From a virus (taxonomy: Duplodnaviria > Heunggongvirae > Uroviricota > Caudoviricetes), in the IMG/VR virus record IMGVR_UViG_2778261454_000013: a DNA stretch of 10,026 nucleotides; one strand, given 5' to 3'. Position 1 is the first letter of the stretch. Every line of letters starts with the position of its first letter. Positions 2,634-8,712 of the stretch are shown here, in pieces. Position numbers and translations under genes: made by a program. Below the pieces are notes generated by a model. The model was not told the origin of the DNA and did not search any database. It worked only from the letters and a program-made list of their open reading frames with translations.

Positions 2634-3125
2634 AACCCCACCTCGCAGACAAAGCGGGTGTAAATTGAGGGAATACAACGTATCGCAAAAAAGCAGAAAC
2701 GTAACAGACTCGGAGTCAGTGAATAACTCAGGTATTGAGTTATCAGCTAATATCGAGACTCAAAAAATGGAAAAACCAGCTCGACGGCGGGTTTAAGCTG
2801 TGTGACGAAGTAACCACTCTTAACAGCATAACCAATTTTTTACGTACGTAAACCACTGAATGATATTTATGAGAATGCTACCGAGTGTTCAAAACACCAC
2901 CACAAATACATAAGAAAACCTCAACAAATAACCAATAAATAATTTCAGAGGTTATTTTTAGTTGATTTAAATTAAACTGCCGAATTATAGAACCCCCATA
3001 AATAACAGCCATTAATATAAATTAGCTAATAGGTTTATTTTTGTTCAAATAAGAGCCATAAATAGGTTTCGATAGAAAAAGTTCAGATAAAAATAGAGAT
3101 CTACTTCACAAATTAAATGAGAAAC

Positions 3126-3150
3126 TAAAACTTACATCTTGAAATAATCA
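3126..3150 (+). promoter_or_regulatory. OmpR-box-like motif in the porin upstream region
   Basis: Sequence AAACTTACATCTTGAAATAATCAC resembles the ompC OmpR-binding half-sites (TTTACATTTTGAAACATCTA) as I recall them. Lies about 80 bp upstream of the porin ATG inside an AT-rich ~540 bp ORF-free region. Confidence 0.3.
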
Positions 3151-3221
3151 CATTGATTAGATGAATATTTATCGCGCAGTGACATCATTTTTTAATAATA
3201 GTTCAAAAAAAAGGGCTCACG

Positions 3222-4304
3222 ATGAAAAAATTAACAGTGGCAATTTCTGCTGTAGCTGCATCAGTACTGATGGCGATGTCTGCTCAGGCAGCTGAAATTT
3301 ATAATAAAGACAGTAACAAGCTGGATCTGTACGGGAAAGTTAATGCTAAGCACTACTTCTCCTCTAATGATGCAGATGATGGTGATACTACTTATGCCCG
3401 TCTTGGCTTCAAAGGTGAAACCCAAATCAACGATCAACTGACTGGTTTCGGTCAGTGGGAATATGAATTCAAAGGCAACCGCGCTGAATCTCAAGGTTCC
3501 TCCAAAGACAAAACCCGTCTTGCATTTGCAGGCCTGAAATTCGGTGACTACGGCTCAATCGATTACGGCCGTAACTACGGTGTAGCATACGACATCGGTG
3601 CGTGGACTGACGTTCTGCCAGAATTCGGTGGCGATACCTGGACCCAAACAGATGTATTCATGACTGGTCGCACCACAGGTGTTGCAACTTATCGTAACAA
3701 CGACTTCTTTGGTCTGGTTGATGGCCTGAACTTTGCAGCTCAGTATCAGGGCAAAAATGACCGAAATGAAGTAACTGAAGCTAATGGCGATGGTTTCGGT
3801 TTCTCAACTACTTATGAGTATGAAGGATTCGGCGTGGGTGCAACCTATGCTAAATCTGATCGCACTAATAATCAGGTTATCTACGGTAACAACGGTCTGA
3901 ATGCTTCTGGTCAAAATGCTGAAGTATGGGCAGCTGGTCTGAAATATGATGCGAACAACATCTATCTGGCCACCACCTATTCTGAAACCCAGAACATGAC
4001 TGTTTTTGGTAATAACCATATTGCCAACAAAGCACAAAACTTCGAAGCTGTTGCACAATATCAGTTCGACTTCGGCCTGCGTCCATCCGTTGCTTACCTG
4101 CATTCTAAAGGAAAAGACTTGGGTGTTTGGGGTGATCAGGACCTGGTTGAATATGTTGATGTAGGTGCAACCTATTACTTCAACAAAAATATGTCCACTT
4201 TTGTTGACTACAAAATCAACCTGATTGATAAGAGCGATTTCACGAAAGCATCTGGCGTTGCTACCGATGATATCGTTGCTGTAGGTATGGTTTACCAGTT
4301 CTAA
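3222..4304 (+). CDS. nmpC: Phage-encoded general porin of the OmpC/OmpF family (NmpC/Lc-type), intact, 360 aa
   Basis: Signal peptide [23 protein letters not shown], mature N-terminus [22 protein letters not shown] loop-3 motif, C-terminal aromatic ...VGMVYQF. Full length with no interruption. Sits between Q and the holin on the opposite strand, as nmpC does in DLP12. Confidence 0.9.
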
Positions 4305-4876: not shown

Positions 4877-5120
4877 CAACTTACTCCACAAAAATCAGAC
4901 CAGAACGCCAATTACAAGCAAAAATCAATAAAACAGTATTAGTTGATTGTTATCTCTGACTTCATACTCCTGCTCCTGTCAGGGTTTTGGCGTAATTCCT
5001 CAGTATTCGGTAATCGGTCAAAACAGAACCGGGGAAACGATATAAGCGCAGGCGCATCCAGCGGTGGCGAAGACGTTCTGCCATATAAGACTCAAACATC
5101 ATTCATCTCCCAGTTCAGTG

Positions 5121-5303
5121 ATGGTCAGTTCCAGCTTCCCACCTTTGGTAGGCACGATCACTTTCGTCTACTCCGTTACGAAGCGAGGCTGGGTATTTCC
5201 CGGCCTTTCTGTTATCCGAAATCCCCTGAAAGCACAGCGGCTGGCTGAGGAGATAAATAATAAACGGGGAGCTGTATGCACAAAGCATCTCCCGTTGAGT
5301 TAA
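5121..5303 (+). CDS. Small pL-operon ORF (lambda orf60a-like by position and length), 60 aa
   Basis: ATG at 5121 gives MVSSSFPPLVG...; ends at 5303, overlapping the next ORF by 28 nt. This matches my memory of the lambda orf60a/orf63 overlap. Identity not verifiable here. Confidence 0.4.
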   Translation: MVSSSFPPLVGTITFVYSVTKRGWVFPGLSVIRNPLKAQRLAEEINNKRGAVCTKHLPLS

Positions 5304-5467
5304 GAACGAGTATCGAGATGGCACATAGCCTCGCTCAAATTGGAGTCAGGTTTGTGCCAATACCAGTAGAAACAGACGAAGAATTTCATACGTTAGCCGC
5401 ATCCCTTTCACAAAAGCTGGAAATGATGGTGGCGAAAGCAGAAGCAGATGAGAGAGACCAGGTATGA
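5276..5467 (+). CDS. Small pL-operon ORF (lambda orf63-like), 63 aa
   Basis: GGGGAG Shine-Dalgarno 4 nt upstream of the ATG. Balanced composition (MHKASPVELRTSIEMAHSLAQIG...). Stop overlaps a downstream ATG as ATGA. Confidence 0.5.
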   Translation: MHKASPVELRTSIEMAHSLAQIGVRFVPIPVETDEEFHTLAASLSQKLEMMVAKAEADERDQV

Positions 5468-5759
5468 CAACCACGGAATGCATTTTTCTGGCAGCGGGCT
5501 TCATATTCTGTGTGCTTATGCTTGCCGACATGGGACTTGTTCAATGACACCTCAGCAGGAAAACGCCCTTCGCAGCATTGCCCGTCAGGCTAATTCTGAA
5601 ATCAAAAAAGCCAGACAGCAGTTTCCGGATAAAAACGTCGATGACATTTGCCGTAGCGTACTGAAGAAGCACCGCGAAACGGTAACGCTGATGGGATTCA
5701 CACCGACTCATTTAAGCCTGGCAATCGGCATGTTAAACGGCGTCTTTAAGGAACGATGA
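5448..5759 (+). CDS. Hypothetical small protein (lambda orf61 position); start uncertain
   Basis: ORF overlaps the preceding gene by 20 nt if it starts at 5448 (103 aa). An internal ATG at 5544 (MTPQQENALRSIARQ..., 71 aa) overlaps, as ATGA, the stop of an intervening 27-codon ORF. Confidence 0.4.
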   Translation: MRETRYDNHGMHFSGSGLHILCAYACRHGTCSMTPQQENALRSIARQANSEIKKARQQFPDKNVDDICRSVLKKHRETVTLMGFTPTHLSLAIGMLNGVFKER

Positions 5760-5780
5760 ACATGAAAAGCAAAATCATCA

Positions 5781-5802
5781 GGGAGCTACAGGCTCCTTTT
5801 TT
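5781..5802 (+). terminator. Possible intrinsic terminator or attenuator between small ORFs
   Basis: Hairpin GGAGC-TACAG-GCTCC followed by TTTTTT. Alternatively this stretch lies inside a 31-codon ORF (5756..5851). Confidence 0.3.
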
Positions 5803-5857
5803 ATTATTCGCATTCACCCTCAAGCGTATTAACCAACAATTCAGGGATTAATGGAAG

Positions 5858-6079
5858 ATGGCAGACATCATTGATTCAGCATCAGAAATTGAAGAATTAC
5901 AGCGCAACACAGCAATAAAAATGCGCCGCCTGAACCACCAGGCTATATCTGCCACTCATTGTTGTGAGTGTGGCGATCCGATAGATGAACGAAGACGCCT
6001 GGTCGTTCAGGGTTGTCGGACTTGTGCAAGTTGCCAGGAGGATCTGGAGCTTATCAGTAAACAGAGAGGTTCGAAGTGA
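5858..6079 (+). CDS. TraR/DksA-family C4 zinc-finger protein (lambda Orf73-like), 73 aa
   Basis: Motif CCECGDPIDERRRLVVQGCRTCASC fits the DksA/TraR CxxC-(N17)-CxxC zinc finger with conserved G, I and R positions. The 73-aa length matches TraR-like phage proteins. Confidence 0.7.
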   Translation: MADIIDSASEIEELQRNTAIKMRRLNHQAISATHCCECGDPIDERRRLVVQGCRTCASCQEDLELISKQRGSK

Positions 6080-6176
6080 GCGAAATTAACTAGAAGCCAA
6101 AGATAAAATCATCGCTGAGCAGGAGAAAATCGCTAACGGAGAAAAGACAGTAAGTCAGTATATGAAAACCGCATGA
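6076..6176 (+). pseudogene. Probable ea22-like remnant, interrupted after codon 5
   Basis: GTG at 6076 overlaps the upstream stop (GTGA) and encodes (M)SEIN, then an in-frame TAG. From memory lambda Ea22 begins MSEINSQ. A shifted frame continues EAKDKIIAEQEKIANGEKTVSQYMKTA to 6176. Confidence 0.3.
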
Positions 6177-6231
6177 TATCATCAGATAAAAATCGGTCGT
6201 AAAGCGAAATATTAATACCAGAACAAACGAG

Positions 6232-6255
6232 TCGAGGTAAATTATATTACCTCGA
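6232..6255 (-). terminator. Strong hairpin downstream of the membrane-protein gene (putative terminator)
   Basis: Perfect 9-bp stem TCGAGGTAA-ATTATA-TTACCTCGA (6232..6255), about 35 bp past the minus-strand stop. The downstream minus-strand sequence is only moderately U-rich (ctcgtttgttctgg). Confidence 0.4.
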
Positions 6256-6289
6256 TAAATTAACTAAAACTTGCCCGCTATATACTATA

Positions 6290-6892
6290 TCATTCAGTAT
6301 CATCACGCGCGGTCTGTGCATATGTCACTACCGCACCTAATATATTAATTTTCTTTTCAACATAGATAATATTATCGTACTCATAATTGCCATACGGATA
6401 GCAAATGCGAATATTCTCATGTAGTTCGGGGTCATCCACCTCAGCTCCAGAACAACTTTTTGAACTACCGGAAGTATACCGATACGGTGCAACATAAGAC
6501 GATGTCTCTCCAGGCAAAAAATAAGTTAGTGTCGTAAGGGGTATAATCAGAAAAAATCCAGCAAATATGCACATCCCTGCATAAACCTTAAGGTATGCTG
6601 ACAGACTCTTCCAGCCTCTTTGTTTTACTATCCCCTTCTTAACCCAAAACAGAGATAACAGAAAAGCTATTCCCATGCTAAACAGAATGTAATAGTGGGA
6701 TATACTCTGATTAAGAAACGTGACCCTGTAGATATCTGCCCGCCACCAGAAGAAAAGGAAAATAAAGATCAGCCCTGAAACTGTCATGCAAATCAAATAA
6801 GGATACGAATCTTTTTTCATGTTTAGCGCCCATAAAATTTTTCCTGACCCGGACAAATTTACCATCCATTTTTTGCGCAGAAAATAGCTCAT
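6290..6892 (-). CDS. Unrecognised integral membrane protein (3 predicted TM helices plus ~75-aa C-terminal domain), up to 200 aa
   Basis: Long minus-strand ORF in a markedly AT-rich segment. Hydrophobic stretches LICMTVSGLIFIFLFFWW, YYILFSMGIAFLLSLFWV and VYAGMCIFAGFFLIIPLTTLTYFL, then a polar tail with Cys and Tyr residues. No clear Shine-Dalgarno at any candidate start (6892, 6865, 6820). TATTAT hexamer at 6906..6911 on the transcribed strand. Confidence 0.55.
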   Translation of the reverse strand: MSYFLRKKWMVNLSGSGKILWALNMKKDSYPYLICMTVSGLIFIFLFFWWRADIYRVTFLNQSISHYYILFSMGIAFLLSLFWVKKGIVKQRGWKSLSAYLKVYAGMCIFAGFFLIIPLTTLTYFLPGETSSYVAPYRYTSGSSKSCSGAEVDDPELHENIRICYPYGNYEYDNIIYVEKKINILGAVVTYAQTARDDTE

Positions 6893-7065
6893 TACTTACT
6901 GCACAATAATACACAAAATTGCGTAAATTTTTTGCATGGATTTTAGCTCTTTCAGCCGAAATTTAAGGGGTAAATAGCATTTCCTAAAAGCAACTGCACC
7001 AACCCAACAGAATGGGCTACCGCTTACGTTGAGAGCAAAAAAGTGTATAGCAGCAATGAACAGCA

Positions 7066-7094
7066 TCCTCGCACTGACGAGGATTTCTTTTATC
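7066..7094 (+). terminator. Hairpin with T-tract near the right edge of the cargo segment
   Basis: TCCTCG-CACTGA-CGAGGA followed by TTTCTTTTAT. Confidence 0.3.
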
Positions 7095-7134
7095 TGAACT
7101 CGCTACGGCGGGTTTTGTTTTATGGAGATGATAA

Positions 7135-7302
7135 ATGCACTTCCGAGTCACAGGTGAATGGAATGGAGAACCATTCAACAGAGTTATCGAAGCCGAGAAC
7201 ATCAGCGACTGCTATGACCACTGGATGCTGTGGGCGCAGATAGCACATGCAGACGTAACCAATATTCGAATTGAAGAACTGAAAGAACACCAAGCCGCCT
7301 GA
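7135..7302 (+). CDS. Small pL-operon ORF upstream of xis (lambda orf55-like), 55 aa
   Basis: GGAGA Shine-Dalgarno 6 nt upstream of the ATG; translation MHFRVTGEWNGEPFNRVIEAENISDCYDHWMLWAQIAHADVTNIRIEELKEHQAA. The 40-bp gap to xis matches the lambda layout as I recall it. Confidence 0.5.
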   Translation: MHFRVTGEWNGEPFNRVIEAENISDCYDHWMLWAQIAHADVTNIRIEELKEHQAA

Positions 7303-7317
7303 TGGCGGTTTTTTCTT
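7294..7317 (+). terminator. Intrinsic terminator-like hairpin between orf55 and xis
   Basis: GCCGCC-TGAT-GGCGG followed by TTTTTTCTT. The orf55 stop codon lies in the loop. Confidence 0.45.
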
Positions 7318-7360
7318 GCGTGTAATTGCGGAGACTTTGCGATGTACTTGACACTTCAGG
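7316..7360 (+). promoter_or_regulatory. pI-like, CII-activated int promoter region
   Basis: TTGC-N6-TTGC direct repeat (7316..7319 and 7326..7329) just upstream of and overlapping the xis start, as in lambda pI. Confidence 0.5.
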
Positions 7361-7560
7361 AGTGGAACGCACGCCAGCGACGCCCAAGAAGCCTTGAAAC
7401 AGTTCGTCGATGGGTACGCGAGTGCAGGATATTCCCTCCTCCGGTTAAGGATGGAAGAGAGTATCTGTTCCACGAATCAGCGGTAAAGGTTGACTTAAAT
7501 CGACCAGTAACAGGTAGCCTTTTGAAGAGGATCAGAAATGGGAAGAAGGCGAAGTCATGA
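7342..7560 (+). CDS. xis: Excisionase Xis, 72 aa
   Basis: Translation MYLTLQEWNARQRRPRSLETVRRWVRECRIFPPPVKDGREYLFHES... appears identical to lambda Xis. Overlaps int by 23 nt. Confidence 0.95.
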   Translation: MYLTLQEWNARQRRPRSLETVRRWVRECRIFPPPVKDGREYLFHESAVKVDLNRPVTGSLLKRIRNGKKAKS

Positions 7561-8608
7561 GCGCCGGGATTTACCCCCTAACCTTTATATAAGAAACAAT
7601 GGATATTACTGCTACAGGGACCCAAGGACGGGTAAAGAGTTTGGATTAGGCAGAGACAGGCGAATCGCAATCACTGAAGCCATACAGGCCAACATTGAGT
7701 TATTTTCAGGACACAAACACAAGCCTCTGACAGCGAGAATCAACAGTGATAATTCCGTTACGTTACATTCATGGCTTGATCGCTACGAAAAAATCCTGGC
7801 CAGCAGAGGAATCAAGCAGAAGACACTCATAAATTACATGAGCAAAATTAAAGCAATAAGGAGGGGTCTGCCTGATGCTCCACTTGAAGACATCACCACA
7901 AAAGAAATTGCGGCAATGCTCAATGGATACATAGACGAGGGCAAGGCGGCGTCAGCCAAGTTAATCAGATCAACACTGAGCGATGCATTCCGAGAGGCAA
8001 TAGCTGAAGGCCATATAACAACAAACCCTGTCGCTGCCACTCGCGCAGCAAAATCAGAGGTAAGGAGATCAAGACTTACGGCTGACGAATACCTGAAAAT
8101 TTATCAAGCAGCAGAATCATCACCATGTTGGCTCAGACTTGCAATGGAACTGGCTGTTGTTACCGGGCAACGAGTTGGTGATTTATGCGAAATGAAGTGG
8201 TCTGATATCGTAGATGGATATCTTTATGTCGAGCAAAGCAAAACAGGCGTAAAAATTGCCATCCCAACAGCATTGCATGTTGATGCTCTCGGAATATCAA
8301 TGAAGGAAACACTTGATAAATGCAAAGAGATTCTTGGCGGAGAAACCATAATTGCATCTACTCGTCGCGAACCGCTTTCATCCGGCACAGTATCAAGGTA
8401 TTTTATGCGCGCACGAAAAGCATCAGGTCTTTCCTTCGAAGGGGATCCGCCTACCTTTCACGAGTTGCGCAGTTTGTCTGCAAGACTCTATGAGAAGCAG
8501 ATAAGCGATAAGTTTGCTCAACATCTTCTCGGGCATAAGTCGGACACCATGGCATCACAGTATCGTGATGACAGAGGCAGGGAGTGGGACAAAATTGAAA
8601 TCAAATAA
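7538..8608 (+). CDS. int: Tyrosine integrase Int (lambda Int), 356 aa
   Basis: Translation MGRRRSHERRDLPPNLYIRNNGYYCYRDPRTGKEFGLGRDRRIAITEA... with C-terminal catalytic region ...HELRSLSARLYEKQ...LLGHKSDTMASQYRDD. Full length. Confidence 0.97.
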   Translation: MGRRRSHERRDLPPNLYIRNNGYYCYRDPRTGKEFGLGRDRRIAITEAIQANIELFSGHKHKPLTARINSDNSVTLHSWLDRYEKILASRGIKQKTLINYMSKIKAIRRGLPDAPLEDITTKEIAAMLNGYIDEGKAASAKLIRSTLSDAFREAIAEGHITTNPVAATRAAKSEVRRSRLTADEYLKIYQAAESSPCWLRLAMELAVVTGQRVGDLCEMKWSDIVDGYLYVEQSKTGVKIAIPTALHVDALGISMKETLDKCKEILGGETIIASTRREPLSSGTVSRYFMRARKASGLSFEGDPPTFHELRSLSARLYEKQISDKFAQHLLGHKSDTMASQYRDDRGREWDKIEIK

Positions 8609-8712
8609 TGATTTTATTTTGACTGATAGTGACCTGTTCGTTGCAACAAATTGATAAGCAATGCTTTTTTATAATGCCAACTTAGTATAAAAAAGCAGGC
8701 TTCAACGGATTC
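8609..8712. other. attL: attL recombination site: phage P' arm, 15-bp core, bacterial B arm
   Basis: Core TTAGTATAAAAAAGC at 8682..8696 is the reverse complement of the lambda core GCTTTTTTATACTAA. P' arm carries arm-type Int sites (AGGTCACTAT on the opposite strand) and an IHF-like TTGATAAGCA element. Beyond the core is GCAGGCTTCAACGGATTCAT. Confidence 0.85.

Follow-up and report, generated by a model that had tools for sequence, protein, structure and literature searches.

A very probable autonomous membrane-protein moron at the ea22/ea8.5 position of a lambda-like prophage, and a tentative case for phage exclusion at the envelope

Introduction

SieA of phage P22 is a prophage-expressed inner-membrane protein of 162/164 amino acids (aa) with three predicted transmembrane (TM) segments, which on its own blocks DNA injection (PMC10461980). 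In P2-like phages, the cos-proximal interval between gpA and gpQ, the site of P2 old and tin, is a hotspot for anti-phage systems (Rousset et al. 2022, PMC9122126), and Table S5B of that study lists as system #4 a single protein without a Pfam family, described as '3 TM', with 470 occurrences, which makes it the fourth most frequent cargo of the P2 hotspot. In phage lambda, a pro-lysogenic role has been reported for Ea22 (PMC7093339). Here, we describe a minus-strand gene encoding a small membrane protein that stands in the place of ea22 and ea8.5 in the IMG/VR virus record IMGVR_UViG_2778261454_000013 (Caudoviricetes), whose complete analysed stretch of 10,026 nucleotides (nt) is hereafter called the window. 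An earlier note, made from the letters of the window alone, had singled out this gene as possible superinfection-exclusion or anti-phage cargo, and the present analysis follows up that proposal.

A cassette in place of ea22 and ea8.5

The window was aligned by BLASTN with the lambda reference (NC_001416), a comparison that the earlier note had proposed, and both junctions of the foreign segment were fixed in this way. Window positions 5147-6091 correspond to lambda 31325-30380 (98.3% identity) and positions 7065-8696 to lambda 29355-27724 (98.8%), leaving sharp junctions at 6091/6092 and 7064/7065, between which lambda 29356-30379 is replaced by 973 bp of the window (6092-7064). The replaced lambda interval comprises ea22 (29847-30395) minus its first 16 nt, plus ea8.5 (29374-29655). 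A BLASTN comparison of 6092-7064 with lambda 27400-32100 returned no alignment, and the segment is not ordinary lambda sequence. These results confirmed that cargo lies between the TraR-like orf73 and orf55 at the position of ea22 and ea8.5. A replacement segment does exist, as had been supposed, but the limits first given for it (6180-7060) were slightly too narrow. The GC content of the cassette is 38.0%, compared with 47.1% and 45.2% in the lambda-homologous flanks, and only 3.9% of the 973-bp segments across the window are equally AT-rich; the cassette is clearly lower in GC, but to call it far more AT-rich overstates a difference of 7-9 points. Junctions, composition and strand together bear out the description of a self-contained, AT-rich accessory gene in antisense orientation. 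The cassette and its gene are as follows.

6092..7064, no strand: inserted/replaced cassette of 973 bp at the lambda ea22 plus ea8.5 position (lambda BLASTN)
6290..6820, minus strand: coding sequence of the 176-aa membrane protein, start MKKDSYPYL..., from the family-supported ATG-6820
6821..6892, minus strand: 24-codon N-terminal extension of the 200-aa annotation, probably untranslated 5' region (family alignment, upstream conservation)

Gene model

The one long open reading frame (ORF) of the cassette, on the minus strand at 6290-6892, spans 200 aa. Its homologues are 166-189 aa long and start at the residue equivalent to Met25 of this ORF, and the PGAP call in E. coli C10 is 176 aa. The equivalent of ATG-6892 is followed directly by a stop codon in Salmonella cassettes (ATG-TAG) and is absent from the E. 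coli P2-type cassette. Moreover, ATG-6892 lies upstream of the conserved -10 element described below. Because of the starts used by the family, the C10 call and the stop or absence of ATG-6892 in relatives, 6290-6820 is the likely coding sequence, and comparison of the homologues indicates that the real product is probably the 176-aa protein from ATG-6820 rather than a 200-aa protein. The 200-aa gene model was rejected in favour of the shorter one on the basis of the family alignment and the upstream conservation; the earlier note was right that a minus-strand ORF exists at 6290..6892, but the start probably lies at 6820 and the 200-aa model is probably too long. Annotated lengths differ among records: the entry for phage 434 gives 188 aa and PGAP gives 200 aa, the family-supported length being 176 aa. 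Pairwise ratios of nonsynonymous to synonymous substitution (dN/dS) range from 0.08 to 0.21 where dS is unsaturated, which points to purifying selection on the protein.

A further ORF of 56 aa (6896..7066, minus strand), annotated as 'putative membrane protein' in the 434 record, is probably not a gene. It has no PGAP call and no PHROG, Pfam or NCBIfam match, it is located upstream of the conserved promoter block, and it falls mostly outside the region common to P2-type cassettes. An Rfam scan of 5800-7400 revealed no RNA family.

Promoter-like elements, terminator and mobility of the unit

Conserved or terminator-like elements were found on both sides of the coding sequence, as listed here.

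6856..6864, minus strand: promoter-like motif TGGTAAATT of the extended -10 type, located 44 nt before ATG-6820, conserved in phage-borne cassettes
6879..6884, minus strand: hexamer TTTTCT occupying the -35 position (17 nt before the -10 hexamer), a weak match (3/6) to the consensus
6895..6916, minus strand: direct repeats of the TTGTG(T/C)A type, conserved in P2-type cassettes
6232..6255, minus strand: perfect 9-bp stem (6232-6240/6247-6255) with a 6-nt loop, terminator-like for the minus-strand transcript

Of the six phage-borne cassettes examined, five have TGNTAAATT at -44, namely the 434-type, the KplE1 remnant, the E. coli P2-type and two Salmonella P2-type cassettes; in the remaining one (L013), a Salmonella P2-type cassette of greater divergence, TGATAATTT is present at -47. 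The TTTTCT hexamer lies within an invariant block of the upstream alignment. Chromosomal copies of the gene are without the conserved upstream block and its -10 motif. When the window was compared with the P2-type cassettes, nucleotide similarity began 100-130 bp upstream of ATG-6820 and ended near the stop codon. Two to four ATTGTGCA-type direct repeats, at a spacing of about 10-11 bp, precede the promoter-like element in lambdoid and P2-type cassettes (L010, L021), an arrangement that may represent an operator for some regulator. In Serratia, ATTGTGCA is likewise present about 130 nt upstream of the chromosomal copy.

Part of this region, the pattern TTGT-N6-TTGT at 6903-6916, carries the label of a CII box in the record of phage 434; in CII-activated promoters of the pRE/pI/paQ type, a TTGC-N6-TTGC box straddles the -35 position. 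The CII pattern occurs four times in the window against 2.9 expected, which is not a significant excess. P2-like phages are not known to have CII or the lambda decision circuit. A CII-dependent promoter was consequently not favoured, as the pattern is not above chance and the same upstream block is present in P2-like phages, and for these two reasons the block is read as a putative phage-independent promoter. The gene is probably transcribed, antisense to pL, from this putative extended -10 promoter of its own. Its orientation relative to pL would favour expression in a repressed prophage; in the window, pL is deleted altogether.

Downstream, the perfect 9-bp hairpin reported in the earlier note was recovered 35 nt after the stop codon, with a weak T tail (CTCGTTTGTT), and was scored as terminator-like on the minus strand. 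The cassette unit is present in unrelated phage types: in lambdoid phages, in a remnant of the KplE1 type and, in both E. coli and Salmonella, in P2-like prophages. With its shift in composition, its downstream hairpin and its promoter-like upstream block shared between unrelated phage types, the unit fits the classical description of a moron (Juhala/Hendrix), and we regard it as very probable that this is a real, autonomous membrane-protein moron.

Predicted architecture and family searches

The AlphaFold model of the 176-aa protein, computed with the family alignment, has a predicted local distance difference test score (pLDDT) of 87, and of 89.8 for the C-terminal domain alone. It predicts three TM helices (residues 5-29, 38-61 and 70-101) followed by a five-stranded beta C-terminal domain (residues 105-171), against which a short strand of the first loop packs. 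As modelled, the C-terminal domain resembles an oligonucleotide/oligosaccharide-binding (OB)-like small beta-barrel of about 70 aa. Across 33 diverse family members, the loop between TM2 and TM3 (loop 2) contains on average 4.3 Lys plus Arg residues versus 0.7 Asp plus Glu residues; because of this excess of positive charge, loop 2 is assigned to the cytoplasm and the first loop and the C-terminal domain to the periplasm. In the predicted topology, the N-terminus is accordingly inside, and the first loop faces the periplasm, as does the C-terminal domain.

The only invariant columns of the family are the two Cys residues of the C-terminal domain, which the model places at the open end of one beta-hairpin. 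They probably form a disulfide, which would fit a periplasmic location. Columns with at least 80% identity number 16 of 69 in the C-terminal domain versus none in TM2, loop 2 and TM3, and because conservation is concentrated in this way the helices look like an anchor and the periplasmic barrel like the working part. The functional surface would thus be periplasmic, and the predicted architecture contains no cytoplasmic domain able to sense infection.

Profile searches did not place the protein in any described family. In Pfam, the only hit was DUF6057 (E = 0.18; 11 bits versus a cut-off of 29.8 bits), below threshold, and none of the families described for exclusion, immunity or holin function, for example SieB, T4 Imm, colicin immunity or holins, was matched above threshold. 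No NCBIfam match was found for the protein, and the sequence search of the PDB gave chance matches only (E of at least 1). The BFVD structure search returned nothing significant; at rank 33 it listed a 'SMODS-associating 2TM beta-strand rich effector' (E = 0.84, not significant). The sole PHROG match, PHROG 1416, whose function is not annotated, covers the C-terminal 88 aa alone. The profile searches and the structure prediction suggested in the earlier note thus assigned no known function, and they upheld its description of three predicted TM helices plus a C-terminal domain that fits no described family.

Shortened family members of 96-112 aa (P0131, P0133, P0085, P0080), which retain loop 2 or TM3 together with the C-terminal domain, occur very commonly, and one of them (P0131) was seen on more than 1000 contigs. 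These truncated forms probably explain the length of 90 positions of PHROG 1416.

Distribution in phages and bacterial genomes

The earlier note had called the gene an orphan and implied that it was new, and neither description held. With a query of 1061 bp that spans the cassette, nucleotide identity is 98.6% with phage 434, 98.7% with 2B8 and 99.6% with mEp332. In phage 434 the same cassette contains gene CPT_434_36, annotated 'putative membrane protein', and the first codons of the gene correspond to 'ORF-22+' in the older 434 record M60848. Among 50,697 phage records, the isolated phages that encode the protein are only 434, mEp332 and 2B8. The cassette is present at full length in 905 of the 5426 complete E. 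coli genomes (about 17%), O157:H7 strains among them. Clustering at 90% identity puts the exact protein in a group of 873 members, and it was observed on over 1000 contigs.

Homologues extend to E. coli, Shigella, Salmonella (58-70% identity), Klebsiella, Enterobacter, Cedecea, Serratia and Pantoea. A profile search of 1.84 billion cluster representatives produced only 61 matches, which form one small family, and the family is confined to Enterobacterales; its named members are all called 'hypothetical' or 'transmembrane protein'. A repeat protein of 3074 aa (P0123; E = 5.7e-7 summed over nine repeats) was dismissed as spurious, since its Cys spacing differs. The cassette is therefore already known from public records and from the hotspot catalogue, and its protein is an uncharacterised prophage membrane protein of the moron type.

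Besides 434-like phages, an intact cassette, 96.5% identical, is located in a KplE1/torI-type remnant beside dsdC in E. coli C10 (NZ_CP010132; L022 2431-5840), flanked by a pseudogenised YqaJ recombinase gene, a fragment of a tail-fibre-assembly gene and a frameshifted IS4 transposase gene. In P2-like prophages, the E. coli homologue P0039 (78% identity) and the Salmonella homologues P0044 (70%) and P0048 (58%) are encoded between the portal gene gpQ and gpA, that is, in the hotspot introduced above. The window protein and the representative of system #4 were compared by BLASTP and share 51% identity over 168 aa (E = 7e-56). The family was thus catalogued by Rousset et al. but apparently never assayed.

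In many Salmonella P2-like loci (L009, L012-L014; 5100-5890), two small same-strand genes (81-123 aa and 119 aa) precede the homologue; loci L010, L015 and L021 are without one or both of them, and they are probably separate hotspot cargo. No conserved neighbour gene was found in any context examined, which suggests that the gene works alone.

Among the distant members on chromosomes or megaplasmids, the Enterobacter copy follows a LysR gene, the Pantoea copy is near fetAB, and the Klebsiella copy lies between a bgl-type phosphotransferase system operon and a LysR gene. In Serratia marcescens (NZ_CP042515; L026 3333-5510), a homologue with 50% identity is located immediately downstream of ptsG; this record, deposited as a linear 'plasmid', is apparently a chromosomal fragment and carries mltG, tmk and holB. 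PtsG is an inner-membrane factor used by HK97 for genome entry. The adjacency to ptsG in Serratia may be coincidental.

The host prophage and the flanks of the cassette

The immediate neighbours of the cassette are listed below.

6076..6093, plus strand: ea22 start remnant at the left junction, GTG AGC GAA ATT AAC TAG, five codons (sequence read)
5858..6079, plus strand: TraR/DksA-family zinc-finger gene, equivalent of lambda orf73 and left neighbour (PHROG 54, TIGR02419)
7135..7302, plus strand: orf55 (lambda hypothetical protein 29118-29285), right neighbour (PHROG 676, lambda/434 annotation)
7065..7084, plus strand: tL4-type terminator hairpin of the pL operon (terminator scan; lambda-homologous sequence)

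The reduction of ea22 to a five-codon start, claimed earlier, was verified by reading 6076-6093; this remnant overlaps the stop codon of the TraR-like gene, and window 6076-6091 equals lambda 30395-30380. The left-neighbour gene is annotated as TraR/DksA in NCCP15648. On the right, the first base of the tL4-type hairpin coincides exactly with the cassette junction, a second, tL4-like hairpin follows at 7096-7115, and record M60848 annotates terminator t-L4 at the corresponding position of phage 434. In other phages the same orf55 flank adjoins different cargo, for example an ASCH-domain gene.

The window represents the integrase-proximal part of a lambda-like prophage integrated at attλ, with xis at 7342-7560 and int at 7538-8608, followed by the host gene ybhC. 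Upstream of about position 5147 come a truncated rusA (rusA'), ylcG and Q, all on the minus strand, which directly abut the 3' portion of orf60a (4892-5150). Still further upstream are a porin gene and an S-R-Rz lysis cassette of the P21 type (P21-type holin at 2418-2678). Everything from the nin region and rusA to orf60a, including replication, immunity, N and red, has been lost, and because of this deletion the prophage is defective. No complete RefSeq E. coli genome contains the 10-kb arrangement uninterrupted; the best match consists of three pieces over 16 kb, with insertion sequence elements. The closest intact phage is mEp332 (97.5% identity in the Q region and 99.6% in the cassette segment).

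The porin gene (3222-4304, plus strand), of the OmpC/OmpD/NmpC type (Porin_1, E = 3.6e-152), is situated between Q and the holin gene, and the region upstream of it (about 2900-3200) has a GC content of 25%. The gene resembles a second moron, or one for lysogenic conversion, of the same prophage. The CII box of pI, TTGCGTGTAATTGC (7316-7329), the t'I terminator (7292-7311) and the second tL4-like hairpin are intact despite the loss of cII, N and pL. Between orf55 and xis, phage 434 has an extra gene, ORF114 (L001 5235-5672), absent from the window (7311-7314) and from lambda, and the orf55-xis interval is another variable spot. A plus-strand ORF of 103 aa (5448-5759), flanked by orf63 (DUF1382) and the TraR-like gene, gave no Pfam match; it overlaps the position of lambda orf61, where the 434 record has two small hypothetical genes.

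Discussion

We tentatively favour, as the best overall explanation, an autonomous one-gene moron that protects the lysogen against other phages at the level of the envelope. An anti-phage role as such falls only slightly short of an even balance in our judgement, and a block to the entry of incoming phages is a doubtful specification of it. The one-gene unit would move between unrelated temperate phages and has here displaced ea22 and ea8.5 in a 434/mEp332-like prophage. Its own extended -10 promoter would allow expression in the lysogen independently of phage regulators. The poorly conserved TM helices would serve as an anchor, with the first loop and a disulfide-bonded, OB-like barrel facing the periplasm. 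There, the barrel would bind either the DNA-delivery component of the incoming phage or a host inner-membrane or periplasmic factor that this phage needs, and such binding would block genome entry, resulting in superinfection exclusion. The analysis establishes the junctions, base composition, coding status and architecture of the unit, the distribution of the family and its location in the hotspot; we infer the use of the promoter, the topology, the disulfide and the anti-phage mechanism as a whole.

Conflict with other phages is suggested by the hotspot location, and action at the envelope is preferred to intracellular sensing because a single prophage-borne gene with a probably constitutive promoter encodes an inner-membrane product whose conserved surface is predicted to be periplasmic. 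The persistence of an intact gene in two decayed prophages, the one in the window and the KplE1/torI remnant of C10, is weakly consistent with a benefit to the host. The original guess of anti-phage or superinfection cargo thus gains from the homologues in the P2 gpA-gpQ hotspot but is not matched by any known defence family.

Several observations weigh against the favoured explanation. PADLOC-DB 2.0 gave zero families at E values up to 1, and no sequence or profile similarity to known exclusion or defence proteins was detected in the comparisons with PADLOC, Pfam, SieA and gp15. The family profile has no detectable homology to P22 SieA (hhalign probability 0.2%), nor to HK97 gp15, a protein of 62 aa (versus 176) from the tail-gene region (hhalign probability 0.6%). 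A generic sigma-70 scan found no strong promoter upstream of the gene and did not call the TTTTCT hexamer. Truncated family forms are common. Stand-alone distant members occur in ordinary chromosome or megaplasmid neighbourhoods without phage genes in Klebsiella, Enterobacter, Serratia and Pantoea; these non-phage copies indicate that the family is not restricted to phages and may have a general role in the envelope. The literature searches yielded no functional study of the protein, and neither of the family motifs occurs in the tables of tested systems (Tables S2A and S2B) of PMC9122126. Finally, hotspots also hold cargo other than defence, since the commonest cargo of the P2 hotspot is the StbA/Plasmid_stab_B pair (Table S5B, PMC9122126).

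The stand-alone copies, together with the porin conversion gene carried by the same prophage between Q and the holin gene and the lack of a PADLOC defence-model match, would also suit a lysogenic-conversion or host-fitness factor whose periplasmic domain modulates some process of the envelope, for example stress tolerance, transport or the properties of the surface. We consider this unlikely, as no conserved neighbour or pathway points to a process, the phage-borne copies sit in a defence-enriched locus, and a patchy family of 61 representatives in 1.84 billion fits accessory conflict genes better than housekeeping ones. An orphan immunity protein against a toxin acting in the periplasm or membrane (a colicin or bacteriocin, or an effector of type VI secretion or contact-dependent inhibition) would likewise be small, would sit in the inner membrane with a conserved binding domain in the periplasm, and would be encoded by an autonomous gene in many genomes without a partner. 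A three-TM topology is typical of the immunity proteins of E1-type pore-forming colicins, which the predicted topology recalls. In immunity proteins against pore formers, however, specificity is carried by the TM helices, which are the least conserved part of the present family; no toxin gene is adjacent in any context examined and no Pfam immunity family matched, which makes an immunity function distinctly unlikely.

A role in abortive infection by a single protein, in which the three-TM bundle would oligomerise into a pore or depolarise the membrane in another way upon detection of phage by the periplasmic domain, killing the cell ahead of completion of the phage cycle, appears very unlikely. 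TM proteins are frequent as effectors in defence systems and in P2/P4 hotspots (PMC9122126), the gene is present at such a hotspot, and the 'SMODS-associating 2TM' entry of the BFVD search is a very weak match in the same direction; on the other hand, cytoplasmic sensor domain and partner gene are both lacking, the poor conservation of the TM helices is unexpected for a pore lining, and the gene is stably carried in about one in six E. coli genomes behind a constitutive-looking promoter. Its exact occupation of the ea22/ea8.5 slot also raises the idea of a substitute in the phage life cycle, for example one biasing the lysis-lysogeny decision. Genes of the exo-xis region influence lysogenisation and induction (PMC7093339, PMC3824215), and the CII-box-like annotation upstream in the 434 record would agree with such a role. 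Nevertheless, the gene is antisense to pL and its membrane protein is unrelated to Ea22, the same cassette and upstream region serve P2-like prophages while other copies stand alone on chromosomes, the CII pattern does not exceed chance, and the gene has been kept in a prophage that lost its immunity and replication region; we therefore hold this explanation to be highly improbable.

Under the favoured explanation, envelope-level exclusion of other phages, the protein could belong to an unrecognised class, in which a three-helix anchor carries a disulfide-locked, OB-like periplasmic barrel that intercepts phage DNA delivery or its host factor, a proposal that we put forward as somewhat unlikely in this specific form. 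If it were true, a cassette traded among lambdoid and P2-like prophages and chromosomes would explain part of the exclusion by 434 and by the E. coli genomes that carry it (about 17%), and a function would be given to a gene of a textbook phage, of roughly one-sixth of E. coli genomes and of the fourth-ranked hotspot cargo. A structurally new family would then join the few injection blockers of Gram-negative hosts (SieA, gp15, Imm), with a bearing on the prediction of host range in phage therapy for E. coli, Shigella and Salmonella. If the gene is not anti-phage, it still encodes a widespread, conserved and horizontally traded envelope protein.

Comparison with known systems

The nearest relative among catalogued systems is system #4 of the P2 hotspot, which belongs to the same family and shares the three-TM plus C-terminal domain layout, the CSGA and ICYP motifs and the single-gene organisation. 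It is catalogued without a name, a Pfam family or an assay result, and the window copy differs from it in being located in the lambdoid exo-xis region (orf73-orf55) and not between gpA and gpQ. In phage 434 the cassette has the same position and orientation as in the window, the difference being that 434 is an intact phage with the extra ORF114. Lambda Ea22 and Ea8.5 share the orf73-orf55 slot in the exo-xis region, but they are soluble, are encoded on the pL strand and have no sequence similarity to the window protein, so that strand, localisation and composition all differ. DUF1093 and generic OB-fold small beta-barrels (3npp, cold-shock domains, the EF-P OB domain) are also among the closest known systems.

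With respect to function, the window protein may be analogous to, rather than homologous with, SieA and HK97 gp15. It is similar to SieA in size, in its predicted number of TM helices and in a moron-like organisation with a promoter of its own, putative in the window. It differs from SieA in that the motif FnRYPnEAnnFNK is absent and in the side of the membrane on which conserved residues are expected, since the conserved motif of SieA is C-terminal and predicted to be cytoplasmic, whereas the conserved C-terminal domain of the window protein, with its two invariant Cys residues, is predicted to be periplasmic. HK97 gp15, for its part, offers the parallel of a superinfection-exclusion moron that has a terminator of its own and is an insertion among conserved lambdoid genes.

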